Part shown: in pieces, positions 2,915 to 41,494 of the stretch
Layout: each line of letters begins with the position of its first letter
Numbering within the stretch: the first letter of the stretch is position 1
DNA from: an uncultured Porticoccaceae bacterium
GTDB taxonomy: Bacteria > Pseudomonadota > Gammaproteobacteria > Pseudomonadales > Porticoccaceae
Length of the DNA stretch: 64,000 bases
Reading direction: 5' to 3'
Assembly (NCBI GenBank): GCA_965662065.1
Contig: CBFIGD010000003.1
Span: forward strand, 60,141-124,140
Translations under genes and position numbers: made by a program
Notes under the pieces: model-generated
What the model saw: only the letters and a program-made list of their open reading frames with translations
What the model was told of the DNA's origin: nothing
The model's database searches: none

Positions 2915-2958
2915 CAGTCTGTACTAAAAAGAAGAGCGACAAGACACGAGAGAAGTAG

Positions 2959-3819: not shown

Positions 3820-3850
3820 GTAAGTGACAATAAGATAGTGAGATAACAAT

Positions 3851-9566: not shown

Positions 9567-9753
9567 ATTCCTACCTTTCAGATCTTTAAGCCCTAGCGCT
9601 TAATAAATAAAAATTATAAAAGGAATTCGCTTTTTATTTTGTATCTCTCCCTTTACAGGGGGCTGGTGGGTAGTTACGTTTTAAAAAATACTCATACTTC
9701 GATCATTTTTGACGTTGAGTAGTAACAAAAATTCATTTTTGGGGGCTTTAAAT

Positions 9754-12576: not shown

Positions 12577-12600
12577 GCTTTAGCTATTGTTAGACTCTAT

Positions 12601-12631
12601 AGGGCGAACTTCGGTTCGCCCTATTTTTTTA
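12601..12631 (+). terminator. Rho-independent terminator after the receptor gene
   Basis: AGGGCGAAC-TTCG-GTTCGCCCT followed by ATTTTTTTA. Confidence 0.75.
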
Positions 12632-12647
12632 TTGCCGAGAAAATACT

Positions 12648-14654
12648 ATGACCCAGCCAAACTCAACGACAGCAGCCGATGTGGATCAAGCGCAGAGATT
12701 GCTGGCGGCAAGTAAGCTCGAAGATGCCCACAAGCTTATTGATAATGTACTTGCCCAGAGTCCCGATAACGCTGATGCACTGTATACCTTCGCGGTGATT
12801 CAGCGGCTTAAAAAAGGTCATGTAGAGGCTTTAAAAACCTTAGATAAAGTCTTGCAGCAGCAGCCCAACCTGGCACGAGCCTATCAAGAGCGGGCCCTTA
12901 ATGAGTTGTCGTTAAATAACCCAATGCCGGCGGGAAAGGCTTTGGAGGCAGCGGTAGCATTGGACCCGTCGCTATTAAAAAGCTGGCAGCTTCTTGTGCC
13001 TCTGTACAAGGCCAGCGGCAGCAGTAAAGCTCGCGATGCCCAACAGCAGGTAGATTTTTTGCAAACCCTACCTAGCGAACTTCTCACTGCAATTAGTTAT
13101 TTATCGGCTGACCGTTTGCTGGAAGCTGAGAGAGTTTGTCGCGGCTTCTTAATGCAGAATAAAACGCATGTTGAGGGTATGCGTCTATTGGCCGAAATTG
13201 CCACACGCAACAATATTCTCGAAGATGCAGAGTTTTTACTGGAGAGTGTTGTTGAGTTTGCGCCGGAGCATCTGGATGGCAATATTCAATACGCCCATAT
13301 CTTATTGCGTCGACAGCGCTTTCATCGAGCTTATGATCAGGCTAAAAAAGTATTTGATAATTATCCTGACGCGCGAGCGCGAACTCAGCCAGTCTATGCG
13401 TCTGCCTGCTTTGGCGTGGGCAGAAGTGAGGAAGCGATTGAGCAGTACCTGGAAATGATTGAGTCAGACCCCAGTAATTCGCAGCTCTATGTGTCGCTGG
13501 GTCATATCCATAATACTCAGGGCGATCCCGACAAGGCCGCCGAGGCCTTTAAGCAGGCCTATAAGCTTAATCCCAATTTTGGCGATGCCTATTGGAGCTT
13601 GGCCAATACCAAGTCTTACAAGTTCGATGACCAGCAGGTTGGCGCCATGCAGGAGTCAGAAGCCAGTGCTGATATTCCCTCACTAGATCAGATTCAAATC
13701 AATTTTGCCTTGGGTAAGGCATTTGAAGATCGCCATGACTATACGCAGGCATTTCATCATTACGCCAAGGGCAATGCGTTAAAGAAGCCCACAACGCATT
13801 ATGCTGCAGGGCACCTGCAACGCCGAATTGATTCCCAAATTGCAGTTTGCACGCGTGAATTTCTAGAATCGAAGCAAGGGTTAGGCAATAGCTCACCGGA
13901 TCCTATTTTTATCGTCGGGTTACCGCGTTCAGGCTCTACATTGCTGGAGCAAATTCTGGCCTCGCACTCACAGGTGGACGGCACCATGGAGCTGCATAAT
14001 ATATTGGACCTGGCTAAGCGACTGCGCGGCAGAGATAATGAGAATGACGAGAACCCCAGATATCCGCAGATAATAACTGAATTAGATGACAGCTATTTTG
14101 CGCGTTTTGGTGATCAGTTTATGCAGGACACTCAGGTTTATAGAGACGCCGCGCCGTTCTTTACGGATAAGATGCCCAACAATTTTTTTCATATAGGTCT
14201 AATTAAACTAATCTTACCTAACGCCAAGGTTATCGATGCGCGTCGTCACCCTATGGCTTGCTGCTTTAGTGGTTTCAAACAACTGTTTGGTGAGGGGCAG
14301 GAATTTTCCTATGGCCTGGCAGACATAGGTAATTATTATCGCCAGTATATTAAGTTGATGGATCACTGGGATCAGGTTCTGCCGGACTTTGTACTGCGTG
14401 TTCAGCATGAGGACGTTGTAGATGACCTGGAAACACAGGTTCGTCGTATTCTTAACTTTTGTGGTCTGCCTTTCGAGGAAGCCTGTTTGGCGTTCCATAA
14501 AACGGAGCGCAGTGTGCGTACTCCGAGTGCAGAGCAGGTTCGCCAACCAATTTACAAAACCGGACTGGATCAATGGCGTAACTTTGAAGAACACCTGCAG
14601 CCGTTAATCGATGCACTGGGACCCGATGTGTTAAAGCGTTATCCCATCAATTAG
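12648..14654 (+). CDS. TPR-repeat protein fused to a PAPS-dependent sulfotransferase domain
   Basis: The N-terminal ~400 aa are TPR-like repeats. The C-terminal domain has the 5'-phosphosulfate loop GLPRSGSTLLEQ and the 3'-phosphate motif IDARRHPMACCFS. Confidence 0.85.
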   Translation: MTQPNSTTAADVDQAQRLLAASKLEDAHKLIDNVLAQSPDNADALYTFAVIQRLKKGHVEALKTLDKVLQQQPNLARAYQERALNELSLNNPMPAGKALEAAVALDPSLLKSWQLLVPLYKASGSSKARDAQQQVDFLQTLPSELLTAISYLSADRLLEAERVCRGFLMQNKTHVEGMRLLAEIATRNNILEDAEFLLESVVEFAPEHLDGNIQYAHILLRRQRFHRAYDQAKKVFDNYPDARARTQPVYASACFGVGRSEEAIEQYLEMIESDPSNSQLYVSLGHIHNTQGDPDKAAEAFKQAYKLNPNFGDAYWSLANTKSYKFDDQQVGAMQESEASADIPSLDQIQINFALGKAFEDRHDYTQAFHHYAKGNALKKPTTHYAAGHLQRRIDSQIAVCTREFLESKQGLGNSSPDPIFIVGLPRSGSTLLEQILASHSQVDGTMELHNILDLAKRLRGRDNENDENPRYPQIITELDDSYFARFGDQFMQDTQVYRDAAPFFTDKMPNNFFHIGLIKLILPNAKVIDARRHPMACCFSGFKQLFGEGQEFSYGLADIGNYYRQYIKLMDHWDQVLPDFVLRVQHEDVVDDLETQVRRILNFCGLPFEEACLAFHKTERSVRTPSAEQVRQPIYKTGLDQWRNFEEHLQPLIDALGPDVLKRYPIN

Positions 14655-14656
14655 CA

Positions 14657-15280
14657 GTGATAGTTTCTCATGCTAAAAAGTGTATATTTTTTGCGGTGCC
14701 CAAAACCGGGACCCATGCAGTTCGTGAGCTGCTAAGGAGCCACAAAGGGCCAGAAGACTGGGAACAGCAAATATTATTTGGTGAGCAGTTCTTACCTATT
14801 CCAGCGATAGCAAAAATTCAACATGGGCATATTAGTGCTCAACAGATTAGGCCGCACCTGGATAAAGCTATGTGGCAAGACTATTTTAAATTTGCCATTG
14901 TTCGAAATCCCTTTGATCGATTCATCTCTATTTGTTTTTTCTTGAATCGAAAAAATCCTCTGTTCCTTGAAACACCGCTGCAGTGGATGAAGTCTGCGAT
15001 TCAGGTGCAGCGATTTAGACAGCGAGTATTAGTAAAACCGCAATATCTGCAGTTAACTGACGAGCAGGGCAATATCGCCATGGACTATGTTGGCCGTTAT
15101 GAGACGCTACAGGATTCTGTCGATGAGATTTGTCAAAGGTTGCAGATTAAGTCGAGTCAGCTGCAGAAAAGAAATACTTCAGAGCATCAACAGTACCCTG
15201 AGTACTATGATGAAGAGCTTAAATCTGCGGTCGAAACGTTCTATCAAGAAGACCTGAAAAGATTTAATTATTCCTATTAG
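14657..15280 (+). CDS. Small sulfotransferase (family-2/carbohydrate-type motifs)
   Basis: GTG start 3 nt after the previous stop. Motifs FFAVPKTGTHAVRELL (5'-PSB-like) and FAIVRNPFDRFIS (3'-PB-like). Confidence 0.65.
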   Translation: MIVSHAKKCIFFAVPKTGTHAVRELLRSHKGPEDWEQQILFGEQFLPIPAIAKIQHGHISAQQIRPHLDKAMWQDYFKFAIVRNPFDRFISICFFLNRKNPLFLETPLQWMKSAIQVQRFRQRVLVKPQYLQLTDEQGNIAMDYVGRYETLQDSVDEICQRLQIKSSQLQKRNTSEHQQYPEYYDEELKSAVETFYQEDLKRFNYSY

Positions 15281-16256
15281 TGTAGGCGCCCATCTGCTCG
15301 ATATTCAGTGCGGCATGGATCAGGCGCTGCATAATAATCGGGTTTAGCCCCACCTGATTATTGCTATTAACCAGTGCTCTCGGATTGTCGTCAAGCTGGC
15401 TTGCTGCGCGACCCAATAGTTCACGATAGGTTGTCCAGCCAGCCTCTTCATAGCCATATAGGTGCCAGGTTTTACGCCAGTCTTTGGCCAGGCTCAGCAA
15501 CAGGTTTTTATATCTGGTGGATAGCTGTGAATCATTCTCGGGATTATTTTCAATATCGGCAATCAACTCATTGGCAATAGCTTCAAATTCACCTGGCGCC
15601 ATCACTGGAGCAATATTATAGCGCTCCGTTTTAATGCTGGCCTGCTGTCCCGGCTGGTAGGGGTACGGATTAATTTTAGCCTGTAGCTCCGGTGCAGTGT
15701 CCTCTACACCAAAGGACTCCATCTCGCGTACTGTCTGCCAAAAGCGCGAAGAACCTGAGGTATCTATCACCAGATGAACGCGATCCTGGTCACTGGCATT
15801 GATCACTTTATGTCGACGCCAGGAATCGAATATCCAGCATTCTCCCGCGCGCATATGAATCGCCTGATTACCACAGTGAAAGATGACATTTGGGTTAGTA
15901 ATGATAGGAATATGGATTCTAACTCTGCTATACCAGTGGTAATTAAAATCCACATGCTCACTGACCTCTGCGCCGGCATTCAGGCGCATAAGTCTTGAGC
16001 GCGCCAACACCTCCCCAAAACTGGCCATCACCTGCTGCATATATTCGCAGCTGTGCAATGCTGATGTGGTAGCCATAGGCCCATCGAAATCATTGTTACG
16101 CTGACCATTTAGAGAGATCAGTGGAATGGCCAGATTGCCGGCCAATTTAGAAGGGTGCTCCATCCAGTCGCTGGCAACAAACTTGGCAATTTCGCTCTGC
16201 AGTTGAAGAGCATCAAATTGATAGGGAAGTCGCACGAAAGGTTGGGCTAGTTTCAT
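15264..16256 (-). CDS. Aspartyl/asparaginyl beta-hydroxylase-family Fe(II)/2-oxoglutarate oxygenase (cupin)
   Basis: Motif EHVDFNYHWYSRVRIHIPIITNPNVIFHCG...WIFDSWRRHKVINASDQDRVHLVID matches the AspH/LpxO family core. No transmembrane segment. The 3' end overlaps the sulfotransferase 3' end by 17 nt. Confidence 0.8.
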   Translation of the reverse strand: MKLAQPFVRLPYQFDALQLQSEIAKFVASDWMEHPSKLAGNLAIPLISLNGQRNNDFDGPMATTSALHSCEYMQQVMASFGEVLARSRLMRLNAGAEVSEHVDFNYHWYSRVRIHIPIITNPNVIFHCGNQAIHMRAGECWIFDSWRRHKVINASDQDRVHLVIDTSGSSRFWQTVREMESFGVEDTAPELQAKINPYPYQPGQQASIKTERYNIAPVMAPGEFEAIANELIADIENNPENDSQLSTRYKNLLLSLAKDWRKTWHLYGYEEAGWTTYRELLGRAASQLDDNPRALVNSNNQVGLNPIIMQRLIHAALNIEQMGAYTNRNN

Positions 16257-16410: not shown

Positions 16411-17424
16411 ATGTCTGCAATAATTATGTCCGAACGAGAGGTCCAGCAGCTGGTGGAAGACTGCCTGACCAGCAATGGCTGTAACCATGAAAATGCCGCA
16501 GCACTTGGCCGCACGATAGCCTCAGCAGAGCGCGACGGTAGTGCTTCTCATGGATTATTTAGAATGCCTGGCTACATTGCTTCGCTGCGTAGCGGCAAGG
16601 TCAATGGCAATGCCAAACCTACAGTGACTCGCCTTTCACCGTCGGTGGTTAAAGTCGATGGCGATCATGGCTATGCACCACTGGCGTTGGAGAAAGGGCG
16701 CGAAGCATTAATAGAAGCTGCCCGTGAAAATGGTATTGCCGCTATGGCACTGGTCAATGTGCACCATTTTGCTGCGCTCTGGGTTGAAGTAGAGCCTATT
16801 GCCGAGGCAGGTTTGGCTGCGATGGCTTTTACAACCTATAAGCCGGCAGTGGTTCCCGCTGGCGCAAAACAGCCATTATTTGGTACCAACCCTATGTGCT
16901 TTGGCTGGCCCCGTGGTGATAAGCCGCCAATGGTATTTGATCAGGCATCGGCGTCTATGGCGCGTGGAGAAGTCATGATTGCCGCGCGTGATGGCCATGC
17001 GGTGCCACTGGGTACAGGCGTGGATGCAGACGGCAACCCGACCACAGAGCCACAGAAGATTATTGATGGCGGTGCACTGTTGCCCTTTGGTGGTCACAAA
17101 GGCTCGACCATTGCCATGATGATTGAGTTGCTGGTTGCTGGCCTTACCGGCATGGACTTTAGCTACGAGGCGCAGAAAAATGATAATAACGATGGCGGCC
17201 CGCCAAATGGCGGCGAATTTATGCTGGCTATCGATCCCAATCGCTTTGGTGATGCACAGGGTTGGTTACGTCATTCTGAGGCGTTTTTAGAGCGCCTAGC
17301 TGATATGGAAGGTGCGCATATGCCCGGTAACCGCCGTTACGCCAACCGTGCCAAGTCCGCAGTGGATGGGATTAGCCTGAGCGAAAAGGTCTATGCCAGC
17401 TGTCTTGAGTTTATTAATGTTTAG
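16411..17424 (+). CDS. Ldh_2-family NAD(P)H oxidoreductase, DpkA-like (delta1-piperideine/pyrroline-2-carboxylate reductase / N-methyl-amino-acid dehydrogenase type)
   Basis: Motifs SHGLFRMPGY, HHFAALWVEVEPIAEAGL, KQPLFGTNP and GVDADGNPTTEPQKIIDGGALLPFGGHKGS. These closely parallel my recollection of Pseudomonas DpkA. Confidence 0.8.
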   Translation: MSAIIMSEREVQQLVEDCLTSNGCNHENAAALGRTIASAERDGSASHGLFRMPGYIASLRSGKVNGNAKPTVTRLSPSVVKVDGDHGYAPLALEKGREALIEAARENGIAAMALVNVHHFAALWVEVEPIAEAGLAAMAFTTYKPAVVPAGAKQPLFGTNPMCFGWPRGDKPPMVFDQASASMARGEVMIAARDGHAVPLGTGVDADGNPTTEPQKIIDGGALLPFGGHKGSTIAMMIELLVAGLTGMDFSYEAQKNDNNDGGPPNGGEFMLAIDPNRFGDAQGWLRHSEAFLERLADMEGAHMPGNRRYANRAKSAVDGISLSEKVYASCLEFINV

Positions 17425-17591
17425 TAATTTTATATCTAAAAGGGTATAAATTAATTAGGCTTGTAACAGTCTCTAAATGATTGATTAGATTGACAGCTGG
17501 TTAGCGTCAAAAATAGACGGCTAGGACGTAACTTGATCGCAATAGGCCGCTAAAGCCAGTTATAACCAGAAAAAATTAAAGGGGAGTCAGC

Positions 17592-19037
17592 ATGAGTCAA
17601 GACATATTCCAGAACTATATCAATGGCCAGTGGGTGGGCAGTTCAGCCGTTATAGAAAATATTAACCCGTCAGATATCAGTGATGTAGTGGGGCACTATG
17701 CCAAAGCGTCTTCGGAAGACTGTCTAGCAGCCATTGCTGCAGCTAACAGTGCATTTGATGGCTGGTCACAAAGTGGCCTTGAGCAGCGCAAGCAGGTGCT
17801 CGATTTTATTGGTGCCGAGTTGATTGCTCGCAGCGGTGAAATTGGTGAAATTCTCGCCCGTGAAGAGGGTAAAACCCGTGCAGAGGGGGTAGGTGAAGTC
17901 TATCGCTCTGGCCAGTTCTTTCAATATTACGGCGCCGAAGCGCTGCGTTTGATGGGTGAAAACACGCAATCTGTGCGCCCTGGTGTGGATGTAGAGGTTC
18001 ACCGTGAAGCGCTGGGTGTGATTGGGATTGTGACGCCATGGAATTTCCCTATGGCAGTAGCGGCATGGAAAGTTGCCCCCGCATTGGCCTACGGCAATGC
18101 AGTGGTCCTTAAACCTGCCGAGCTGGTGCCAGCCAGTGCCTGGATACTGGCAGATATCATTAGCCGCAGTGGCCTGCCTGCTGGAGTCTTTAACCTGGTT
18201 ATGGGTTCTGGTCGCGATGTCGGCGAAACCCTTTGCACATCCCCCGATATTCAGGCGGTAACCTTTACCGGCTCTGTGGGCGTAGGTCGTCATATCGCAC
18301 GCAATGCGATCGACAATATGGCCCGTGTGCAGCTTGAGATGGGCAGTAAGAATGCCCTGGTTGTCCTCGATGATGCCGATATTGATACCGCGGTGACCTG
18401 CGCTGTTGCCGGTGGTTATTTTGGTACCGGACAAAAATGTACCGCCTCTTCAAGAATAATTGTACAGGCCGGTATCCATGATGAGTTTGTTAAAAAAATG
18501 ACGGCTGCTGTCAGCGAACTGGTGGTCGGTCATGCTTTGGCTGAGGGCTCACAGATCGGTCCAGTGGTGGATGCCCGTCAGCTTGAGCAAAATCTCGACT
18601 ATATGCAGATTGCTGTGGATGAGGGTGCCCAGCTAGTGGTGGGTGGTGAGCGTTTGCAGTTAGACACCGAGGGTTTCTTTATGTCGCCCGCGCTGTTTAT
18701 TAATACCAATAATCAGATGCGTATTAACCGCGAAGAAGTTTTTGCTCCCATTGCCTGTGTGATTAAAGTTGATAGTTATGACGAGGCCCTGGAGGTCTCT
18801 AATGATTCGGACTTTGGTTTGACCTCGGGTATTATTACCAACTCGCTCAAGTATGCCGGTCACTTTAAACGCCACTCCAAATCAGGCTGTGTGATGGTTA
18901 ATTTGCCCACGGCGGGTACTGATTATCATGTCCCCTTTGGTGGTCGTAAAAACTCGAGCTACGGTGCGCGAGAGCAGGGCCAATATGCGCGCGAGTTCTA
19001 CACTATTATAAAAACTAACTACAGCAAACCTTATTAA
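17592..19037 (+). CDS. NAD(P)+ aldehyde dehydrogenase (semialdehyde / 2,5-dioxovalerate dehydrogenase-like)
   Basis: 481 aa. Catalytic Glu motif VQLEMGSKNA and Cys motif GQKCTASSR. N-terminus is YINGQWVGSS...NPSD. Confidence 0.9.
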   Translation: MSQDIFQNYINGQWVGSSAVIENINPSDISDVVGHYAKASSEDCLAAIAAANSAFDGWSQSGLEQRKQVLDFIGAELIARSGEIGEILAREEGKTRAEGVGEVYRSGQFFQYYGAEALRLMGENTQSVRPGVDVEVHREALGVIGIVTPWNFPMAVAAWKVAPALAYGNAVVLKPAELVPASAWILADIISRSGLPAGVFNLVMGSGRDVGETLCTSPDIQAVTFTGSVGVGRHIARNAIDNMARVQLEMGSKNALVVLDDADIDTAVTCAVAGGYFGTGQKCTASSRIIVQAGIHDEFVKKMTAAVSELVVGHALAEGSQIGPVVDARQLEQNLDYMQIAVDEGAQLVVGGERLQLDTEGFFMSPALFINTNNQMRINREEVFAPIACVIKVDSYDEALEVSNDSDFGLTSGIITNSLKYAGHFKRHSKSGCVMVNLPTAGTDYHVPFGGRKNSSYGAREQGQYAREFYTIIKTNYSKPY

Positions 19038-19050
19038 TCGGAGCCCAGTG

Positions 19051-20046
19051 ATGAACAGAGACATGCTTCTTATTGATGGGTTGCAGTACGTCAATTGGAA
19101 CCGCGGGTTATTTGAGCAGGCTCAGCGTGCAGGGTTACATGCGATTCATGTGACTATTGCCTACTGGGAAAATAGCCGTGAGACGCTGGAAAATATAGGC
19201 CATTGGAATCGCCATTTTATCGATCATGGTGATCTGATTATGCCAGTCCATGAGGCGGCAGATATTCTTGAGGCCAAGCGTCTTGGCAAAGTCGGCATTA
19301 TCTTTGGTTTTCAAAACTGCTCGCCGATTGAAGACGATGTCAAAATGGTACAGATCCTCCACCAACTGGGGGTGCGGATTATGCAGCTTAGCTACAATAA
19401 CCAGAGCCTGCTGGCGACCGGTTGTTATGAAGAGCAAGACGGTGGCATTACCAGATTTGGCAGGCAGGTTATAAAAGAGATGAACCGTGTGGGCATGATT
19501 ATTGATATGTCTCACAGCGCCGAAAAGTCGACTCTCGAAGCGATTGAAATATCTGAGCGACCCATCGCCATTACCCATGCAAACCCAACTTTTTTCCATG
19601 CCGCGCTGCGCAATAAATCTGATACCGTGCTGCGCGCCATCGGCGAATCGAGAGGAATGCTGGGGTTTAGTATGTATCCGTTTCACTTAAAAAATGGATC
19701 TGATTGCACCTTGGAAGAGTTCTGTCAGATGATCATGCAGACTGCTGAGATGATTGGTGTTGAGCGTCTGGGTATTGGCTCTGATCTTTGTGAAAACTGG
19801 GATTATTCGGTGCTTGAATGGATGCGCAGTGGCCGCTGGACCATGGGTATCGACCATGGCGAAGGAACCGCAGCCAGTCCGTCATGGCCGCGTCAGCCAA
19901 ATTGGTTCGCCGGATCAAAGGATATGCACACTGTGGCGCAGGGCCTTGAAGAAGTAGGCTTTAGCGACGCAGAGGTGGCGGCAATTATGGGGCAGAACTG
20001 GCAGTCATTTTTTGAACAATCATTTATCGGTAAGGATAAAGCATGA
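19051..20046 (+). CDS. M19 (renal/membrane dipeptidase) family metallohydrolase homologue
   Basis: LIDGLQY..., LGVRIMQLSYNNQS, IIDMSHS and ITHANP are the dipeptidase-family metal-ligand regions. The start is 13 nt after the ALDH stop; GTG 19048 is also possible. Confidence 0.85.
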   Translation: MNRDMLLIDGLQYVNWNRGLFEQAQRAGLHAIHVTIAYWENSRETLENIGHWNRHFIDHGDLIMPVHEAADILEAKRLGKVGIIFGFQNCSPIEDDVKMVQILHQLGVRIMQLSYNNQSLLATGCYEEQDGGITRFGRQVIKEMNRVGMIIDMSHSAEKSTLEAIEISERPIAITHANPTFFHAALRNKSDTVLRAIGESRGMLGFSMYPFHLKNGSDCTLEEFCQMIMQTAEMIGVERLGIGSDLCENWDYSVLEWMRSGRWTMGIDHGEGTAASPSWPRQPNWFAGSKDMHTVAQGLEEVGFSDAEVAAIMGQNWQSFFEQSFIGKDKA

Positions 20047-21578
20047 TTAATCAGGTAGCAGATAATCCGTCGACAAGCATAGATTGGCCCGTCTTTATTT
20101 TGAGTGGCGGCTTCTTGCTGTTGTTTGTGGCCACTGCGCTATTTGATTTGAGTTTTCTCTCGGCTGTGGTTAACAGTGCCTTTGGCGGAGCGACCAAATT
20201 ATTTGGCGCTTACTGGCAGGTGTTAATGCTACTGACCTTTATTATTGCCCTGGGCATTGCGGCCTCAGATTCTGGGCGAGCACGATTGGGAAATCTGAGT
20301 GCACCGGATATCAGCACCTACAAGTGGGTGGCCATTATTATGTGCACCCTACTGGCTGGTGGCGGTGTATTTTGGGCCGCAGCCGAGCCTATGGCCCACT
20401 TCATATCCTCACCACCATTATTTGCCGTCGAGTCGGCAAGCCCAGAGGCTGTGTATCCGGCGCTGGCACAAAGTTATATGCACTGGGGCTTTTTGTCCTG
20501 GTCGATCCTTGGTAGTTTGACCGCCATTATTTTTATGTATCTGCACTACGACAAAGGTCTGCCGCTTAAACCGCGCATTTTACTGTATCCGGTTTTTGGT
20601 GAGTTAGTACTGCACGGCTGGCTGGGCGCGTTTATTGATGCTGCCTGTGTAGTGGCTGTAGTGTCTGGGACGGTAGGGCCAATTGGCTTTTTGGGTTTGC
20701 AGGTGAGTTTTGGTCTCTCTGAGCTGTTTGGTGTCAGTGACAGCTATAGCACGCAGCTGGCTATTATTTTGGGCCTGATCGCAATTTACACAGTCTCTGC
20801 GGTGTCTGGTGTTACGCGCGGCATTCAAATTCTCAGCGCATTTAATATTGGTTTAGCCATGGTACTGATGGCATTTATTCTACTGGCTGGGCCAACCGCA
20901 TTTATCTTTGACAGCTTTATTCAGTCGGTCGGTGTGCTGGTAACCGAATTTATCCCCATGGCCAGCTACCGCGCGGATACAGGCTGGGTAAATGGCTGGA
21001 CAGTATTTTTCTGGGGCTGGTTTATCGGCTATGGGCCATTAATGGCGATGTTTATTGCGCGTATCTCGCGCGGTCGCACAGTTCGCGAATTGATTGTTAC
21101 CCTATCACTAATAGCGCCTTTAGTGACTTACTTCTGGTTCACGATAGTCGGTGGCTCCGGCATCGCTTTGGAGCTGGCCAATCCCGGGGTAATTTCCGCA
21201 CCCTATGCTGAGTCTGGGATGCCGGCGGCTCTGTTAGCAATTACTCAGCAATTGCCCTGGGGATTTTTGATGTCGGTGCTATTTTTGGTGCTGACAACTA
21301 TCTTTGTTGCCACCACCGGTGACTCCATGACCTACACCGTTTCTATGGTTATGACCGGCACTGATAATCCGCCGACAGCACTGCGTGTATTTTGGGGAAT
21401 CATGATGGGTGTATTGGCTGCAATATTGATCTCAATCGGTTCTGGTGGCGTCTCGGCATTACAGTCATTTATTGTCGTAACTGCCGTTCCCGTGTCGCTT
21501 ATATTAATGCCGTCGCTTTGGAATGCTCCTAAACTAGTGAAAATTATGGCCGCAGAACAGGGTCTTACACAATCTTAA
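20043..21578 (+). CDS. BCCT-family (betaine/carnitine/choline-type) transporter
   Basis: BCCT signature GWTVFFWGWFIGYGPLMAMFIARISRGRTVRE and ~12 TM helices. The ATG overlaps the dipeptidase stop (ATGA). Confidence 0.9.
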   Translation: MINQVADNPSTSIDWPVFILSGGFLLLFVATALFDLSFLSAVVNSAFGGATKLFGAYWQVLMLLTFIIALGIAASDSGRARLGNLSAPDISTYKWVAIIMCTLLAGGGVFWAAAEPMAHFISSPPLFAVESASPEAVYPALAQSYMHWGFLSWSILGSLTAIIFMYLHYDKGLPLKPRILLYPVFGELVLHGWLGAFIDAACVVAVVSGTVGPIGFLGLQVSFGLSELFGVSDSYSTQLAIILGLIAIYTVSAVSGVTRGIQILSAFNIGLAMVLMAFILLAGPTAFIFDSFIQSVGVLVTEFIPMASYRADTGWVNGWTVFFWGWFIGYGPLMAMFIARISRGRTVRELIVTLSLIAPLVTYFWFTIVGGSGIALELANPGVISAPYAESGMPAALLAITQQLPWGFLMSVLFLVLTTIFVATTGDSMTYTVSMVMTGTDNPPTALRVFWGIMMGVLAAILISIGSGGVSALQSFIVVTAVPVSLILMPSLWNAPKLVKIMAAEQGLTQS

Positions 21579-23351
21579 TTGGAAAGCGCTTTGCACAGCA
21601 ATCAGTACCCGACAGGACAGCAAGCAGCCAGCAGTGCGCAGGTACTGCGGCTGCGTCCTGCCAGTCAGGTTATGCAGCTGGAGCGACTGGGTAGTTTTCA
21701 CCAATCACGACTGAGCTTTATGCGTACGCTGGTGCGCCGCATGGTCAATGAGAACTGGCAGATTACCACTCAGTTATTTGACCTCGATGAGCAGGGCTAT
21801 GGCACTGTGGTCTATCAGGTCGAGGCTAGATACGGCATCTTTAGTTTTGTGTTGTTCTCCCATTATCTGGATCCAGAAAGCCGCAATGATCGTGTTATCG
21901 CCAATCAATGGGACCTTACCATGGCCCTGTGTGAAGGCATTGTCGATGCTGAGCAACTGGCATTTTTACGCAGCAATGTCCCCAGGCAGGAGGCGGGCCG
22001 TGTTGACTCGCGCGTGCTGGTATTATCTCGCGCCAACCGCAGTGCACGAACCTTTGACTATGTGGTTGATGAGCTGACCCATGGCCGTCAGCCCTGTGTT
22101 GATGTGATTGCCGAGGTTGGTTATCTGTATCGCACCACCGCGGCCTATGGCAGTGGCAAACTGGGAATGGCTGACTGGGAAAAGGTACAGGTCAAGCACC
22201 GCGACTTTGCCCGACCTTTTGCGGCAGAGATGTTTACCTGTTTTATGCTGCGCCACTTTAGTATGCAACAGGCGGATTATTTGGCTGACCAGAGAGCGCC
22301 GCGAACTGCGGTGCTTCTCGATGATGACATTAAGCGCTATATAGGTATAGGTAATTCCACCGGCCTGGGTATGGCGCCATTTTTAATTAATCATCCGCTA
22401 CTCATTAACCAGTGGATTGAAATGCGTGAAACCGCATTGGCAAGAGCGGTTGCGGCCGGTGAAGCCGGTGTTGATGAGGCTACACTAGCCCGTTTAGATG
22501 CGGCAACTCAGCGCGTTATCCAGCATCTGAGTGAAATTGTTACCGGTGACGAACGACAAAACAATGCCAATGTGCTGGTGCGTGAAGAATTAGCGCTATT
22601 GCACCAATGGCTGCAGGAGCAGGGTTCGGTATTGGTGAACAATCATCATGTGTGGGCTGATCTTATTCAGTATGCCGAGCAGAGTTGGCATATAGAAACT
22701 CAGGAACTGATCAATACGCTATTGATCGAGCTTTACCCCGCGTTAGTTGACGGACTGGAAGAGCAGATGAGCGTGGAAGAAGTGCAGCAAGTCACTCCTG
22801 AAATGTCGGTCGCTGAGCTACTGCAAACCATTGAAGAAAAATATGATTGGGCACTGGCCATAGACTTTAGCAGGTATGAGTCCATGGGTGTATTTTGGTA
22901 CCGCTCTCAGGAAAAAATGGAGCCGCGCCTGGGTCAAACCAATATTGATATGGGCATGGAAAAGGAAATGCCACTGGCCATTGGCCGCCATGTACGCGAA
23001 TGCTACAACCAGTTATGTGCCTATAACCACAGCCGTCCAGATCAGAATGTGGCACATTTTATAGTGCAGAATCCGACGTACAGCGGCATTGTTGCCCGCA
23101 TTCAAACCATGGCTTTGAGTCAGTATGGTGAGATTCGTGAGAATCTGGCACACAAAGATGTGCTGCCTATCCATCTGCTGCGCTGCAAGCTGTCCTTTTT
23201 TGGCGTGAGTAAATTTGACCCTCGCTCACGCCTCTGGGTGCGCAATACTATGTTCCAAGGTGCGCCGCTGATCAGTGATTTTGGCAAACCTTTTGCCGAT
23301 GATTGGCAGTTTCCTATCAAACCTGTGTTGACCTGCCCTGAGCAACCATGA
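21579..23351 (+). CDS. Large soluble protein of unknown function (590 aa from TTG 21579; 559 aa if ATG 21672 is used)
   Basis: An uninterrupted ORF that starts directly after the BCCT stop codon. No TM segment, signal peptide or catalytic motif that I recognise. The coding call rests on ORF length and operon position. Confidence 0.7.
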   Translation: MESALHSNQYPTGQQAASSAQVLRLRPASQVMQLERLGSFHQSRLSFMRTLVRRMVNENWQITTQLFDLDEQGYGTVVYQVEARYGIFSFVLFSHYLDPESRNDRVIANQWDLTMALCEGIVDAEQLAFLRSNVPRQEAGRVDSRVLVLSRANRSARTFDYVVDELTHGRQPCVDVIAEVGYLYRTTAAYGSGKLGMADWEKVQVKHRDFARPFAAEMFTCFMLRHFSMQQADYLADQRAPRTAVLLDDDIKRYIGIGNSTGLGMAPFLINHPLLINQWIEMRETALARAVAAGEAGVDEATLARLDAATQRVIQHLSEIVTGDERQNNANVLVREELALLHQWLQEQGSVLVNNHHVWADLIQYAEQSWHIETQELINTLLIELYPALVDGLEEQMSVEEVQQVTPEMSVAELLQTIEEKYDWALAIDFSRYESMGVFWYRSQEKMEPRLGQTNIDMGMEKEMPLAIGRHVRECYNQLCAYNHSRPDQNVAHFIVQNPTYSGIVARIQTMALSQYGEIRENLAHKDVLPIHLLRCKLSFFGVSKFDPRSRLWVRNTMFQGAPLISDFGKPFADDWQFPIKPVLTCPEQP

Positions 23352-23364
23352 AAGTCTCGCCATT

Positions 23365-24096
23365 ATGAAGGTGTCTAAAAATGAGCTGATGGCCTCATTA
23401 AAAAAGGCATTTGAAGGCCTGGGCTTCCAGCCTGGAGACTATCAGAACGCCGCAGATATGGTGGTCTGGTTGCAGACCCATGGTTTCGATGGCTTTGATC
23501 GATTGCAGTCGGCTTTGGCCTCTCTGAACATCACAGGGCCAACCCATGCGGCGCTGGTACAGGAAGATGAGCACAGTACGGTATTAGATGGTAAAGACAG
23601 TTCTATTTTACTTTGCGGTAGCGAGGCGATTGACTTGCTGGTTGCCCAGGTGATGCAGGGTTCTGGGGCACTATTACAACTCAATAACTGTTATAACCGA
23701 ACCTTTATCTTGCAGCGTCTGATCAAGGCGTCGCAGCGCAATGTCGCTTTTATTGCCTATTGGCGACAGGACGATCACTGTGTAAAGGTGTCTGTTGCGG
23801 CGCGAGCCAGTCTTCCCGAGTATCATAATTTTGCAATGACAGAGCCACTGGAACCGCAGTCCCTTACGGTGCTTGCGGGCATGGATTTAGCGGCTATCGA
23901 ACAGCAATTTGCGGCACAGTTTAAGCTGGGCCCGCTGCTAAAAACCTATACTGAGGCGCAAATGACAGCCTGTTATCTTGACTCCGTTGAGCAGGGCATA
24001 GAGATCGACGAGGCCCTGTGGCAGATGCTCGAAGCGTTAATTACCAGAATTCTGGTTGAATCCACCGAAAGCTCAAGAGCCGGCGCCGGAGACTAG
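23365..24096 (+). CDS. Protein of unknown function, 243 aa (possibly the DUF3726-type family; unverified)
   Basis: Last gene of the operon, linked to the upstream gene through a 6-codon bridging ORF. The N-terminus LKKAFEGLGFQPGDYQNAADMVVWLQTHGFDG is only weakly reminiscent of the Ldh_2 N-terminal helix pair. Confidence 0.65.
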   Translation: MKVSKNELMASLKKAFEGLGFQPGDYQNAADMVVWLQTHGFDGFDRLQSALASLNITGPTHAALVQEDEHSTVLDGKDSSILLCGSEAIDLLVAQVMQGSGALLQLNNCYNRTFILQRLIKASQRNVAFIAYWRQDDHCVKVSVAARASLPEYHNFAMTEPLEPQSLTVLAGMDLAAIEQQFAAQFKLGPLLKTYTEAQMTACYLDSVEQGIEIDEALWQMLEALITRILVESTESSRAGAGD

Positions 24097-24120: not shown

Positions 24121-25017
24121 CTATCCCGGCATGTCCATTTCAGCCTGATTGATTAACCAGTAGCGAAAAGCTTCCACATGAGGGTGAACATGCTGGTTGA
24201 CTGGCGTGGCTAAAAAGAATGACTCTGCGGTTGCTACAGGCTCTGTAAAAGGTGCGACTAAACGACCGCTGGCAAGCATATTTGCCGCCAGTGATGTGCG
24301 GCTAAGGGCGACACCATGCCCCAGGGCTGCCATTTCCATGGCAGTCATTAATGAATCAAAATGCACGCCTTGAGAGGAGTCTACCTCATGATAGCCGAGC
24401 TGATTTAGCCAAAAGCCCCACCCCTCCTCATAGCCAATAACATGCAAAAGAGTATGTTCCGAGAGTTCAGCAGGTGTCGCCGGCGGTCTTTTTTCGTCCA
24501 GCAGCGTTGGGCTGCATACAGGAATAAGATCATCCCAGGTAAGCCGGTTGCTGGAAAAGCCGGGCCACAACCCTTTGCCATATCTTATTTCCACGTCCGC
24601 TTCTTTATCCGGATCTGCAACCCAGATATTACTGGTAAAGCGCAGCCCTATATCAGGGTGCAGGGCACGAAAGTCGGCCAGTCTTGGAGCCAGCCAGTGA
24701 TTAAAGAAAACCAGATTAACTCTCACAGTAAGGGTTCTACTGCGCTCCTTGCCAAATATCTCATCGGTAACCACAGCAAGTTTTTCAATCGACTCGCGTA
24801 CGCCTGGAATATAGGCTCGCCCGGAATCAGTAAGTTCTAAACCGCGCGGCAGGCGTTTAAACAGGGCACAGCCAAGTTGCGCCTCCAGACCTTTGATTTG
24901 CTGGCTGACGGCGGCCTGAGTCATATGCAGTTCAGCCGCGGCCTGGGTAAAGTTTAGGTGGCGCGCTGAGGCTTCAAATGCGCGTAGCCAGTTTAGGGGT
25001 GGCAGTCTTTTTTTCAT
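24121..25017 (-). CDS. dddR: LysR-family transcriptional regulator, DddR-like by position
   Basis: HTH LNWLRAFEASARHLNFTQAAAELHMTQAAVSQQIKGLE. Start moved to ATG 25017, because the longer ORF would overlap the IclR gene. It is the last gene of the dddT-B-C string, as in the Marinomonas dddTBCR layout. Confidence 0.8.
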   Translation of the reverse strand: MKKRLPPLNWLRAFEASARHLNFTQAAAELHMTQAAVSQQIKGLEAQLGCALFKRLPRGLELTDSGRAYIPGVRESIEKLAVVTDEIFGKERSRTLTVRVNLVFFNHWLAPRLADFRALHPDIGLRFTSNIWVADPDKEADVEIRYGKGLWPGFSSNRLTWDDLIPVCSPTLLDEKRPPATPAELSEHTLLHVIGYEEGWGFWLNQLGYHEVDSSQGVHFDSLMTAMEMAALGHGVALSRTSLAANMLASGRLVAPFTEPVATAESFFLATPVNQHVHPHVEAFRYWLINQAEMDMPG

Positions 25018-25030
25018 GGCGCTTCTCTTG

Positions 25031-25825
25031 CTAGCTAGTGCTGTTATCGGGGTCGTCAATAAGGCGCCCCAGTTCTTCTGCGGCGCTGCGCAGAATAGGA
25101 AGATAGTCGAGCAGTTCGGGTAAGCTTTTACGAATGACCGGGGCATGGGTAAACAGGCAGGCAAAGAGCTTGCCTGCACTATCCAGTACCGGGACTGCGC
25201 AGGCGACCATACCATCGGCAAACTCTTCGTTATCTGTGCCCACCCCAGTGTTTTTTATTCGCCCAAGCGCCATTTCTAAAGCGTCGGGGCTGGTTATAGT
25301 ATTTCTGCTGTACTGGCTTAGTGGCAGCTTATTAACCAGGATCTGACGCCGTTCTTTGGGCAGTGAACTGAGGTACAGTTTGCCGCTGGCAGTGCACCAG
25401 GTTGGTGTGTGGCTGCCTACCTGTAGATGTATCTGCAAGGGCCAGTCGGTTTGAACCCTATCGTAGTAGATCATGTCGGTGCCGTTGGGAATGGCAATGC
25501 CGCAGGTCTCACCAATCTGTTCGGTAAGCTTGGTCAAAATAGCCTGGCGTACGGCTTTAAACTTGCTGCTGTAAAGTATGCCCAGTGCCACGCCATGCAG
25601 ACGATTGCCCGGCATAATCAAGCCACGCATTGAGGTCTGTACATAGCCGTCGGCCTGGAGCTGATTGAGCAGGCGATGCACGCTGGGCTTGGGAATATCA
25701 AGCTGATAGGCGAGGTCGGCTGGCGACAGCGGCCGCTCAGCCCTGGCCACGGCCTCAATAATTTCCATGACTCTGGATATCGAGGAGCCTTTCTCGCGAG
25801 GCGCTGCTGTGGTTGCTTCAGGCAT
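25031..25825 (-). CDS. IclR-family transcriptional regulator
   Basis: An N-terminal winged HTH (ISRVMEIIEAVARAERPLSPADLAYQLDIPKPSVHRLLNQL) plus an IclR effector domain. Confidence 0.9.
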   Translation of the reverse strand: MPEATTAAPREKGSSISRVMEIIEAVARAERPLSPADLAYQLDIPKPSVHRLLNQLQADGYVQTSMRGLIMPGNRLHGVALGILYSSKFKAVRQAILTKLTEQIGETCGIAIPNGTDMIYYDRVQTDWPLQIHLQVGSHTPTWCTASGKLYLSSLPKERRQILVNKLPLSQYSRNTITSPDALEMALGRIKNTGVGTDNEEFADGMVACAVPVLDSAGKLFACLFTHAPVIRKSLPELLDYLPILRSAAEELGRLIDDPDNSTS

Positions 25826-25840
25826 TGCTAGTTCCTGTGA

Positions 25841-27337
25841 CTATTTCATCGTCGGCATGGAGAACATGGCACCTTCCCGCACACCGGCAGAGGGCCAGCG
25901 CTGAGTGATGGTTTTGCGCTTGGTATAAAAACGCACAGCATCCGGACCATAGGCATGCAAATCACCAAATAGCGAGCGCTTCCAACCACCAAAGCTGTGA
26001 TAGGCAACGGGTACAGGCAACGGTACATTGATACCTACCATGCCCACCAGTATTTGATCGGAGAAATAGCGCGCCGCTTCGCCATCTCGGGTAAAGATGC
26101 AGGTGCCATTGCCATATTCATGGTTATTAATAATATCCATGGCTTCTTGCATGGTCTCTACTCTTACTATTTGCAGTACCGGACCGAAGATTTCTGCGGC
26201 GTAGCTATCCATGTCAACGGTGACATTGTCGATCAGTGTGCCGCCGACAAAGAAGCCATTTTCATGCCCTTCAATTTGCGGGTTGCGACCATCGACCACC
26301 ACGCTGGCACCCTGCTGTTCGGCGCTGTCAATAAAGCCAATTACCTTTTGCTGATGCTGTTTGGTAATCACCGGACCAAAGTCATTGCTGGCATTGGTGC
26401 AGGGGCCAACTTTTAGCTCCTGCATGGCAGTCGCCATTTTGCTGACCAGAGCATCCGCAGCGGCATCGCCCACGGCTACAGCAACTGAGAGCGCCATGCA
26501 GCGTTCACCGGAGGAGCCAAAGGCTGCCCCCAGTAGCTGTGCAACCGCATTGTCCATGTCGGCATCGGGCATGATGATGGCATGGTTTTTCGCGCCACCC
26601 AGTGCTTGGCAGCGTTTGCCGTTGGCATTGGCAGTGCTGTAAATATACTCGGCAATAGGGGTAGAGCCGACAAAGCTGACAGCCTTGATAGCGTCATGGT
26701 GGAGCAGGGCGTCGACGGCTTCTTTATCGCCGTTGACTACATTCATCACGCCATCGGGCAGGCCGGCCTCTTTAAGCAGGGCGGCGATAAATAACGTGGA
26801 GCTAGGGTCACGTTCTGAGGGCTTTAAGATAAAGCAGTTACCACACACAATCGCCATTGGATACATCCACAGTGGCACCATGGCAGGGAAGTTAAACGGG
26901 GTAATACCGGCAACTACACCCAGCGGCTGAAATTCGCTCCAGCTATCAATATTCGCGGCGACATTTTTGCTGTGCTCGCCTTTTAAGAGTTCTGGCGCGC
27001 AGCAGGCATATTCAACATTCTCAATACCACGCTGCAATTCGCCGGCGGCATCATGGCTAATTTTGCCATGCTCTTCACCGATCAGGGCGCAGATTTTATC
27101 GGCATTTTGTTCGAGTAACGCTTTAAAATTAAACATGACGCGGGCGCGTTTAATCGCTGGAGTATCGCGCCACGCGGGGTAAGCCGCCTGAGCAGCAGCG
27201 ATAGCCTGTTCAACCGTAGCCTGAGATGCCAGGGCAACCTGTTTACTGACTTCGCCGGTAGCTGGGTTGTAAACATCTTGGGTGCGCGCGCTCTCGGAGG
27301 TTAGCTGGCCGTTAATTAAATGTCCTACTACTGTCAT
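25841..27337 (-). CDS. dddC: CoA-acylating (methyl)malonate-semialdehyde dehydrogenase, DddC-like
   Basis: 498 aa of MmsA type: FNFPAMVPLWMYP, ALGGAKNHAII (no catalytic-Glu ELGG) and SSGERCMALS. Positioned after dddB. Confidence 0.85.
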   Translation of the reverse strand: MTVVGHLINGQLTSESARTQDVYNPATGEVSKQVALASQATVEQAIAAAQAAYPAWRDTPAIKRARVMFNFKALLEQNADKICALIGEEHGKISHDAAGELQRGIENVEYACCAPELLKGEHSKNVAANIDSWSEFQPLGVVAGITPFNFPAMVPLWMYPMAIVCGNCFILKPSERDPSSTLFIAALLKEAGLPDGVMNVVNGDKEAVDALLHHDAIKAVSFVGSTPIAEYIYSTANANGKRCQALGGAKNHAIIMPDADMDNAVAQLLGAAFGSSGERCMALSVAVAVGDAAADALVSKMATAMQELKVGPCTNASNDFGPVITKQHQQKVIGFIDSAEQQGASVVVDGRNPQIEGHENGFFVGGTLIDNVTVDMDSYAAEIFGPVLQIVRVETMQEAMDIINNHEYGNGTCIFTRDGEAARYFSDQILVGMVGINVPLPVPVAYHSFGGWKRSLFGDLHAYGPDAVRFYTKRKTITQRWPSAGVREGAMFSMPTMK

Positions 27338-27365
27338 TGTTTTGTCCTCAAACCTGTTAGTGGAA

Positions 27366-28523: not shown

Positions 28524-28527
28524 AGGG

Positions 28528-30081: not shown

Positions 30082-30181
30082 AGGTAGATTTCCCCTGAGA
30101 TTTTATTATTTTAATAATCATCTTATAACGATACGATTCTTATTGTTATCCATCTAAATCTTTGCTGCAACCACTAAAAAA

Positions 30182-30236
30182 CATGTCTTTGGCCATAAAA
30201 TATTTATGCGCCCATTAGTAAAATCATGTCTTGGGC
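30182..30236. promoter_or_regulatory. Direct repeat CATGTCTT(T/G)GGC (two copies, 43 bp apart) in the dddT/dddD divergent control region
   Basis: Copies at 30182-30193 and 30225-30236, each followed within a few nt by TAAAAT/TAAAAT-like sequence. Candidate regulator-binding sites. Confidence 0.35.
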
Positions 30237-30391
30237 TAAAATCAAGAATGGCGGGCGACGCAGCCCAGTTATACGAAACCCAGGTATAAAAAAATATTGG
30301 CCTTAGGGGCATTATTTGTTGCTGGTCTGGTGGCGACTTGGTTCCTATGATCGCGGCATATTCAGGCCGGGCTCAGAGTGGGAACATCCCT

Positions 30392-34963: not shown

Positions 34964-34965
34964 GG

Positions 34966-38159: not shown

Positions 38160-38169
38160 TGCATTCCCC

Positions 38170-41385: not shown

Positions 41386-41494
41386 ACACGGAGAGCAGCG
41401 CAGTTGTCAGTGCTGGATCGGTTGTCTCCGGAGAGGCATTGAAAGACTCCCCCAACTAGATACTATACAAATAATAAAAAATCACGAGTGTGTA

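Follow-up and report, generated by a model that had tools for sequence, protein, structure and literature searches.

Trigonelline (N-methylnicotinate), an N-methylpyridinium carboxylate isomeric with homarine (N-methylpicolinate), is degraded by opening of the ring with the N-methyl group kept, followed by amide hydrolysis and aldehyde oxidation. TgnA and TgnB are a flavin reductase and oxygenase pair, and the products of the route are succinate, methylamine and formate. The operon for homarine itself, an abundant metabolite of algae and phytoplankton, was published as homABCDER plus homT (Ferrer-Gonzalez et al., Nat Microbiol, March 2026; PMC13236597), and the Tgn system of Acinetobacter baylyi (TgnABCDE) was cited there as an analogue. 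What is said below of that paper refers to its main text. Both systems have a two-protein ring-opening step in which the N-methyl group is retained, whereas the end product is N-methylglutamate for hom and the three compounds named above for Tgn. Here, a cluster of six genes at positions 16411-24096 was analysed in a 64,000-nucleotide stretch of DNA from an uncultured Porticoccaceae bacterium (the window, meaning the whole stretch). On the basis of synteny, family identity, gene sizes and the description in PMC13236597, the cluster is very probably the Porticoccaceae version of the homarine catabolic operon (probability about 0.88). It is therefore already explained by the published operon, and the route is not new. 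The initial annotation had proposed a catabolic operon of unassigned function for an N-methylated zwitterion imported by a BCCT carrier, with homarine-type compounds among the suggested substrates. The catabolic role and that substrate class agreed with the published gene set; the label "unassigned" did not.

The hom operon was defined in Cobetia sp. OBi1 (ACFLL8_11490-11520), where it consists of a regulator, the betaine-type transporter gene homT and five catabolic genes, and it corresponds to SPO3188-3192 in Ruegeria pomeroyi DSS-3, in the order homA, B, C, D, R (PMC13236597). HomC was described as a predicted peptidase, HomD as an oxidoreductase resembling aldehyde dehydrogenases (ALDHs) and homE as a variably present auxiliary gene that lies on either flank or is absent. 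The homA and homB genes, of about 700 and 1,700 nt, lay side by side in 97.7% of 11,755 genomes, and hidden Markov models of these two genes were specific, whereas those of homC and homD matched many paralogues. Knockouts of homB, homC, homD and homR did not grow on homarine, the homR knockout in R. pomeroyi included, and a Cobetia homT mutant grew more slowly and still grew. Isotope tracing showed that the homarine ring was opened with the N-methyl group kept, giving N-methylglutamate and then glutamate via N-methylglutamate dehydrogenase (NMGDH), with C7H9NO5, C6H9NO4 and C6H9NO3 as reported intermediates. The NMGDH genes, mgd, were needed for full growth on homarine, often co-occurred with hom and are commonly mis-annotated as sox. 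The taxonomic range given for hom explicitly takes in SAR92/Porticoccaceae, the family of the window: the operon is present in SAR92 genomes, addition of homarine specifically raised the homC and homD transcripts of Porticoccaceae, and Porticoccaceae expressed homB in situ in step with homarine concentrations (PMC13236597). The operon thereby connects homarine with glutamate and, in major marine clades, with the cycling of carbon and nitrogen.

Organisation and conservation of the cluster

The same gene set was found in syntenic arrangement outside the window. In a sample of 88 loci carrying the 590-aa gene (homB) from Alpha- and Gammaproteobacteria, the window not counted, the core order ALDH-M19-(BCCT)-590 aa-DUF3726-(Ldh_2) recurred, which places the arrangement far beyond chance. 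An M19 gene with at least 50% identity lay on the same strand within 3 kb of homB in 82 of the loci, and an ALDH gene at the same identity threshold was near homB in 65. An open reading frame (ORF) of DUF3726 size followed homB directly in 82 of 83 loci and overlapped the homB stop codon wherever its start could be placed. The remaining genes were more variable: 21 of the 88 loci had an in-operon BCCT gene, 50 a hom-type LysR gene and 43 an Ldh_2 gene within 6 kb, on the homA or the homD side. The Ldh_2 gene flanks homD in the window and homA in at least 40 other loci, and it is missing from about half. A scan of species-representative genomes added at least 80 loci, including six Ruegeria species. 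The recurrence of the gene set in other genomes, on which the initial annotation had made its proposal depend, was thus borne out.

Plasmids carried the cluster as well. A tblastn search with HomB matched 168 plasmid records, including those of Phaeobacter, Sinorhizobium, Aminobacter, Vibrio, Pseudomonas and Caballeronia; the corresponding search with HomA matched only 5, because the HomA family is too divergent. The megaplasmid of Ruegeria sp. TM1040 holds a LysR gene beside ALDH-M19-BCCT-hypothetical-DUF3726-Ldh. In Phaeobacter inhibens pPGA1_262, the order LysR-ALDH-M19-hypothetical-DUF3726, beside the dmd genes for dimethylsulfoniopropionate (DMSP), is the reverse of SPO3192-SPO3188, that is, of the R. 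pomeroyi order homR-D-C-B-A. In a Pseudomonas plasmid, these genes are divided between two divergently oriented units.

Each gene of the window was then compared with the published description. The gene assigned to homB is 1,773 nt long against the published length of about 1,700 nt and encodes an orphan family; the genes that occupy the homB position in clusters of Ruegeria, Phaeobacter, Shimia and others share 39-45% identity with it along 94-98% of its length. Directly downstream lies a DUF3726 gene of 732 nt, in agreement with about 700 nt for homA. The two proteins that had been left without a function, and had been expected to take part in the pathway, thus correspond to HomB and HomA. 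The M19 and ALDH genes are directly upstream of homT-homB and translationally coupled, as fits homC and homD, and the Ldh_2 gene was the sole variably placed flanking gene across the hom loci, which fits the behaviour published for homE; from this we infer that homE is the Ldh_2 family gene. The Cobetia and R. pomeroyi operons have in common with the window the pairing of homA and homB, homC for a peptidase, homD for an ALDH, an in-operon betaine-type transporter and a nearby sox/mgd-like cluster; the Ldh_2 gene of the window would be the counterpart of the auxiliary homE, whose position varies. They differ from it in three respects: the gene order is E-D-C-T-B-A in the window and E-A-B-T-C-D-R in Cobetia, homR is deleted in the window and present in both published operons, and the homB/homA junction of the window has a 17-nt insertion. 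With this identification, the six genes can be correctly annotated, two of which would otherwise be "hypothetical" or "DUF3726", and the cluster no longer counts among unexplained loci.

HomC, HomD and HomT of the window were 54-61% identical to the proteins of the alphaproteobacterial clusters, compared with 28-39% for paralogous ALDH and BCCT proteins encoded in the loci. Identity of this order suggests that the function is conserved. In particular, HomC was 54-60% identical to the M19 proteins of hom-like clusters, and M19 proteins encoded outside hom-type clusters on plasmids reached 43% at most. HomD was 56-61% identical to the ALDH of most alphaproteobacterial hom-like clusters and 63% to the Pseudomonas plasmid copy (paralogues 30-39%), and HomT shared 57-68% identity with the BCCT carriers encoded within other hom operons (other BCCT proteins in the loci 28-33%).

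These values bear on what the Porticoccaceae operon degrades. Substrate promiscuity is common among BCCT carriers and DpkA-type reductases, and the operon might serve different or broader N-methylated heterocyclic zwitterions in this family, such as other N-methylpyridinium carboxylates or N-methyl cyclic imino acids. The low identity of HomB and the still lower identity of HomA (about 19-29%) to the alphaproteobacterial proteins would allow this, as would the redundant transport seen in the Cobetia homT mutant. We consider it unlikely, since the transcript response of homC and homD in Porticoccaceae was specific to the homarine amendment, homB expression tracked homarine in situ (PMC13236597), and HomC, HomD and HomT are well conserved between Porticoccaceae and alphaproteobacterial loci. 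Proline-, hydroxyproline- or pipecolate-derived betaines and dipeptide-like osmolytes, which had also been named as substrates, found no support. DpkA-type enzymes do reduce pyrroline- and piperideine-2-carboxylate, and the window ALDH resembles the alpha-ketoglutarate semialdehyde (KGSA) dehydrogenase of hydroxyproline pathways. Pfam and NCBIfam, however, detected no racemase or epimerase, Rieske or flavin N-demethylase, D-amino-acid oxidase or deaminase in the operon; about half of the 88 loci do without the Ldh_2 gene; HomC has a substitution that argues against a true dipeptidase (see below); and mutant phenotypes link the syntenic clusters to homarine (PMC13236597). A route of this kind is therefore very unlikely, and the homarine operon is retained as the preferred identification.

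At the level of the sequence, the observations of the initial annotation were confirmed. The order homE-homD-homC-homT-homB-homA was read on a single strand (Table 1), and all six ORFs were intact and of full length with translational coupling kept. The ALDH gene ends in TAA at 19037 and the ATG of the M19 gene follows at 19051 after the reported 13 nt; an in-frame GTG at 19048 is an alternative start that would shorten the gap to 10 nt, and the ATG is the likely homC start. The M19 and BCCT genes overlap as ATGA at 20043-20046, and the BCCT stop codon TAA (21576-21578) is directly followed by the TTG of the 590-aa ORF at 21579. The reductase gene is indeed set apart by 167 nt, a gap in which relatives have a divergent LysR gene. 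Pfam confirmed the labels Ldh_2, ALDH, M19 and BCCT, and "DpkA-like" was apt in that DpkA (1wtj/2cwf) was the best PDB sequence match of the Ldh_2 protein. Consensus scans for promoters and terminators were uninformative, with fewer promoter-like sites than in shuffled sequence and terminator-like sites at chance level.

Table 1. Positions in the window of the hom-like cluster and of the genes downstream of it.
Feature	Position	Strand	Details
homE-like, Ldh_2/DpkA-like NAD(P)H-dependent imine/N-methyl-amino-acid reductase (predicted)	16411-17424	+	337 aa; Pfam Ldh_2 E 7.5e-101
Intergenic region upstream of homD	17425-17591		167 nt; retained promoter/operator region and LysR deletion site
homD, aldehyde dehydrogenase	17592-19037	+	481 aa; Aldedh E 3.7e-155
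homC, M19-family amidohydrolase homologue	19048/19051-20046	+	332/331 aa; Peptidase_M19 E 1.2e-73
homT, BCCT carrier, probable homarine importer	20043-21578	+	511 aa; BCCT E 8.1e-151
homB, orphan-family protein, core of presumed ring-opening enzyme	21579-23351	+	590 aa, TTG start, 1,773 nt
6-codon bridging ORF MKVSPL	23348-23368	+	incidental product of 17-nt insertion
homA, DUF3726 protein, presumed HomB partner subunit	23365-24096	+	243 aa, 732 nt; DUF3726 E 3.2e-13
GcvA-like LysR regulator downstream of homA	24121-25017	-	NCBIfam GcvA subfamily 303.9 bits, above cut-off
dddD-type DMSP cluster	25031-33001		IclR, ALDH, iron-containing alcohol dehydrogenase (Fe-ADH), BCCT, double CoA-transferase-III
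IclR regulator	25031-25825	-	
Methylmalonate-semialdehyde dehydrogenase (MMSDH)-type ALDH	25841-27337	-	
Fe-ADH	27366-28571	-	
Second BCCT, ddd cluster	28528-30081	-	
Divergent double CoA-transferase-III protein	30338-33001	+	887 aa
ORF between dddD gene and sox-like cluster	33140-34174	-	344 aa; no Pfam/NCBIfam match
sox-like heterotetramer (gamma, alpha, delta, beta)	34277-39411	-	candidate mgdABCD
sox-like gamma	34277-34963	-	
sox-like alpha	34966-37866	-	
sox-like delta	37863-38213	-	delta-size ORF
sox-like beta	38170-39411	-	
purU	39447-40325	-	

The homR region and the homB-homA junction

The window was compared with its Porticoccaceae relatives (L086, L087/L088 and L089/L090). All three relatives had a hom-type LysR gene, divergently transcribed, between the Ldh_2 and ALDH genes. 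The window was colinear with L089 and L086 save for about 940 bp holding this gene (L089 2907-3846; L086 4896-5832). The deletion junction was located at 17418-17424, and the sequence that follows it, 17425-17591, matched the LysR-ALDH intergenic region of L086 at about 75-80% of aligned positions. The upstream LysR copy of L086 and the hom-adjacent copies of L001, L002 and L003 formed one clade, in which gamma- and alphaproteobacterial members were 30-33% identical (E 1e-39 to 1e-49). The difference between the window genome and its relatives is, on this alignment, a clean loss of homR. The other LysR gene, downstream of homA, shared 94% identity with the LysR encoded downstream in L086; it matched the hom-adjacent clade (L001, L002 and L003) at 25-39% over partial alignments and gave no match with the upstream LysR of L086. 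Judged by these matches, it is not of the hom type and belongs to another clade. It may serve the adjacent ddd cluster.

The homR gene is a regulatory accessory and not part of the core homABCD. Its deletion means that regulation in this genome must differ from that of the model organisms, and since R. pomeroyi cannot grow on homarine without homR, induction of the operon may have been lost here. The hom gene set may accordingly be silent or decaying, constitutive, or rewired, for example to the GcvA-like LysR, which would modify the identification rather than replace it. Such a state is in line with the missing LysR segment beside a retained promoter region, with the lack of a hom-type LysR copy in the 64 kb by tblastn, with the growth defect of the R. 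pomeroyi knockout (PMC13236597) and with the altered homB/homA junction. On the other side, the six ORFs are intact with their coupling preserved, the insertion at the junction leaves both reading frames open, homR could sit elsewhere in the genome, and the GcvA-like LysR beside homA is conserved in L086. On balance, a regulator-less state of this kind appears rather doubtful. The deletion would imply natural regulatory rewiring or loss of homarine use, and such a clean loss offers a natural experiment on hom regulation.

The second change concerns the 6-codon ORF. The initial annotation had described it as bridging the last two genes, and it is present (ATG AAA GTC TCG CCA TTA TGA), with ATGA overlaps both with the homB stop and with the homA start. 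It is not conserved, however: it results from a 17-nt insertion in the region 23335-23368 that is absent from L086, L087 and L089, in all of which the homB stop is followed after 5 nt by the homA start. The insertion also lengthens the HomB C-terminus. The first four codons of the ORF repeat the homA start (MKVS), and the insertion looks like a small duplication of that start. From this comparison the ORF is evidently incidental and no conserved mini-gene. Neither the homR loss nor the insertion was found in the main text of PMC13236597.

The ring-opening proteins and the proposed pathway

What remains of interest beyond the published operon is the ring-opening chemistry of HomAB, together with the homR deletion. 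HomB had no sequence match in Pfam, NCBIfam or the PDB. When clustered at 90% identity, its family counted more than 7,800 members, and at 50% there were 1,369 representatives; Porticoccaceae were the nearest named relatives of the window protein. The AlphaFold2 model had a predicted local distance difference test score (pLDDT) of 73 and a predicted template modelling score of 0.75, and a Foldseek search with it gave no PDB match at E < 1. The most conserved motifs of HomB had low pLDDT, so that HomA or a cofactor may be needed for a complete model. The invariant motifs were TTAxYGSGK, GIGNSTGLGMAP and the C-terminal ESR-GAGAG of HomA.

DUF3726 was matched by all 20 sampled members of the HomA family, and a literature search on this domain found no papers. 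A match to Ldh_2 was obtained for the window HomA at E 2e-5 and 24.4 bits, below the cut-off of 38.8, and for only 1 of the 20 members. In hhalign comparisons with Ldh_2, two different HomA alignments gave insignificant probabilities of 4-5%, and a HomA profile search of the PDB returned nothing significant. At the level of structure, the AlphaFold2 model of HomA (pLDDT 78) found Ldh_2-family proteins as all of its top 27 Foldseek hits in the PDB (E 2.4e-7 to 1e-4, probability 1.00). Membership of Ldh_2 was rejected at the sequence level, given the Pfam threshold, the hhalign values and the lost His of the Ldh_2 His-Gly motif. Because the fold matches are strong, the sequence evidence is weak and the His is not conserved, the modelled HomA looks like a degenerate or reduced Ldh_2-like fold without membership of the family. 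The structure comparison that had been suggested for the two uncharacterised proteins therefore had a result for HomA, and for HomB it yielded no PDB fold.

Many HomB homologues were 760-960 aa long, and natural fusions of HomB with DUF3726 were found among them, with HomB at the N-terminus and DUF3726 at the C-terminus, the same order as the separate genes. Examples (P0133, P0136, P0159 and P0230) include the 804-aa proteins of Arcobacter and Malaciobacter. The existence of these fusions supports the view that HomB and HomA form one enzyme. Some of the longest HomB-family proteins (885-936 aa) had no DUF3726 match in their C-terminal extension. In PMC13236597, HomA was said to carry FAD-binding motifs and HomAB was likened to the flavin system TgnAB; in the main text we found neither the Ldh_2-like fold of HomA nor the lack of a fold match for HomB nor the HomB-HomA fusions. 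A flavin reductase/oxygenase of the TgnAB type found no support in our analysis, as no flavin-related Pfam domain was detected, HomB had no fold match and HomA resembled only Ldh_2 proteins. The predicted fold of HomA, the fusions and the non-canonical metal site of HomC described next speak against a simple flavin mechanism of the TgnAB type.

The Pfam match of HomC covered only profile positions 38-318 and left the 37 N-terminal positions unmatched; in this region HomC reads IDGLQY where canonical M19 proteins have HxD. The best PDB match was 2i5g, a structural-genomics entry annotated as "amidohydrolase". When HomC and 2i5g were aligned with GliJ, both had Gln at the Glu of the GIEG segment and Tyr at the His of LTH, and HomC retained both segments of GliJ that contain His, as well as the Asp of GSD. 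The canonical M19 site binds two zinc ions through HxD, a bridging Glu and two His. The GIEG Glu is a residue that we take to be the bridging metal ligand of the M19 site, the identities of the GliJ ligands being assumed here. Because of the Gln and Tyr substitutions and the unmatched N-terminal profile, canonical dipeptidase activity of HomC is predicted to be unlikely; the alignment suggests that HomC and 2i5g belong to a subfamily of M19 in which the metal centre has changed. The Gln-for-Glu change was not found in the main text of PMC13236597.

HomC also invites comparison with a second family context. The initial annotation had suggested that an M19 homologue and a small gene flank dgcAB in Pseudomonas, and the arrangement pepD_hp_dgcAB_fixAB is indeed reported in Vibrio natriegens and P. 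aeruginosa (PMC12093977). The window cluster might on this ground be an accessory module of glycine betaine/dimethylglycine demethylation, homologous to the M19 gene and small gene beside dgcAB. The sharing of the Gln and Tyr substitutions by 2i5g agrees with this, and the dgcAB-associated M19/2i5g proteins resemble HomC in the Gln at the GliJ Glu and in their link to methylated-amine catabolism. Against it, no dgcA, dgcB or etf gene was present next to the cluster or in the 64-kb window. The comparison rests on one dgcAB locus, that of Ralstonia (L084), whose M19 protein was 34% identical to HomC, whose small gene encodes DUF5943+V4R and not DUF3726, and which, unlike the window, has no HomB counterpart, ALDH or BCCT. 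These differences indicate paralogy of the M19 proteins only and no shared module, and such a role for the cluster is very improbable. A Paracoccus M19 match (L085) lay in an unrelated, carnitine-like context and was set aside. The Ralstonia small gene lies at 8102-8635 of L084, on the Ralstonia solanacearum megaplasmid, between the M19 gene and dgcA, and is annotated as "4-vinyl reductase"; a role of the DUF5943+V4R protein in dimethylglycine demethylation appears undescribed.

For HomD, the best NCBIfam models were 2,5-dioxovalerate dehydrogenase and KGSA dehydrogenase, both below their cut-offs. DpkA (1wtj, 2cwf, 2cwh), a pyrroline/piperideine-2-carboxylate reductase and N-methyl-L-amino-acid dehydrogenase, is the closest solved structure to HomE: the delta1-piperideine-2-carboxylate reductase entries 1wtj/2cwf were matched at E 1.6e-89, and other Ldh_2 enzymes at 3.8e-43 or weaker. 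HomE missed the NCBIfam equivalog cut-offs of sulfolactate, ureidoglycolate and malate dehydrogenases. DpkA reduces 2-carboxy imines and N-methyl iminium compounds; a gene of this kind is dispensable in many hom clusters. With respect to HomT, the continued growth of the Cobetia mutant implies that transport is redundant. The homT gene was broken in L086 (8464-9994; pieces of 43 and 448 aa) and absent from L087 (7870-8001), so a dedicated transporter appears dispensable in the family.

A pathway for the homarine operon was drawn up by formula arithmetic on the reported intermediates, and we infer its step assignments as follows. HomT would import homarine. HomA and HomB, acting as one enzyme, would activate and open the N-methylpyridinium ring. 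C7H9NO5 fits 2-(N-methylformamido)pent-2-enedioate, as expected from C5-C6 ring cleavage and oxidation. HomC would hydrolyse the amide of this N-formyl-N-methyl enamide, with C6 lost as formate. C6H9NO3 fits the deformylated C5 aldehyde, which HomD would oxidise to the acid C6H9NO4, that is, N-methyl-2-iminoglutarate or its enamine. HomE would reduce the N-methyl iminium to N-methylglutamate (C6H11NO4), and the sox-like cluster 10 kb downstream may demethylate N-methylglutamate to glutamate. Homarine has six skeleton carbons and a methyl group, and N-methylglutamate has five and a methyl group and keeps C2, the carboxylate and the N-methyl; from this carbon count, the lost carbon is most simply C6. 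The same formulas also suit an alternative route in which 6-oxidation comes first, HomC then hydrolyses a lactam and a 2-oxo acid is decarboxylated.

Taken further, HomAB may be a new kind of N-methylpyridinium ring-opening enzyme, unlike TgnAB, in which an orphan-fold HomB is obligatorily paired or fused with a degenerate Ldh_2-fold HomA that perhaps binds NAD(P)H or the 2-carboxy-iminium. An M19 deformylase or lactamase with a remodelled metal site would follow. Separately, the lineage has deleted the activator homR, with rewired regulation or lost homarine use as the implied outcome. This combined proposal is possible and is put forward tentatively.

Several points weigh against the identification or against the roles assigned within it. 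One-to-one orthology with the validated genes SPO3188-3192 and ACFLL8_11490-11520 was deduced from synteny, family identity, gene sizes and the published description, and for this reason the probability was set at 0.88 and not higher. In this regard, R. pomeroyi was not among the matches listed in a roseobacter-first genome scan with HomB, in which six other Ruegeria species appeared, nor among the 120 matches listed, all of at least 74% identity, in a protein search with the R. lacuscaerulensis HomB. A full-text literature search on SPO3188-3192 found no annotation outside the hom paper. The main text of PMC13236597 names no protein family for HomA, HomB or HomE. The profile-profile similarity of HomA to Ldh_2 is insignificant (hhalign 4-5%), and the His of the His-Gly motif is not conserved in most HomA homologues. 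No flavin-related Pfam domain was found in HomA or HomB (the window proteins and the 20 HomA members), and tblastn found no hom-type LysR anywhere in the window. Finally, the deduced nature of the HomAB, HomC, HomD and HomE steps is counted as a weakness, as is the agreement of the lactam-hydrolysis/decarboxylation route with the same intermediates.

Neighbouring genes

The initial annotation had placed the cluster beside DMSP genes, and a dddD-type cluster was found in that position (Table 1). The juxtaposition of hom and ddd was conserved in L086, L087 and L089. Farther downstream, the sox-like genes, which resemble those of heterotetrameric sarcosine oxidase (SoxBDAG), scored below the subfamily cut-offs (soxA 874 against 1164 bits, soxB 465 against 529 and soxG 42.7 against 144), and they are a candidate N-methylglutamate dehydrogenase, mgdABCD. 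Sub-cut-off sox scores are compatible with mgd and are no proof of it, so that mgd and sox are both possible.

Upstream of the cluster, a block at 9709-16256 holds a TonB-dependent receptor (9709-12576), a TPR-sulfotransferase (12648-14654), a small sulfotransferase (14657-15280) and, on the opposite strand, a cupin resembling Asp/Arg beta-hydroxylases (15264-16256). The small sulfotransferase and the cupin were present in L089 and absent in L086 and L087. Nearer the start of the window, 1460-5026 encodes an amino-acid permease, a protein resembling amidinotransferases and dimethylarginine dimethylaminohydrolases (2959-3819) and the alpha subunit of a Rieske ring-hydroxylating oxygenase (3851-5026). 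A 552-aa protein resembling flavin-containing monooxygenases is encoded at 41324-42982 and scored far below the trimethylamine monooxygenase cut-off. Together with the genes at 1460-5026, it possibly takes part in methylated-amine or guanidino metabolism.

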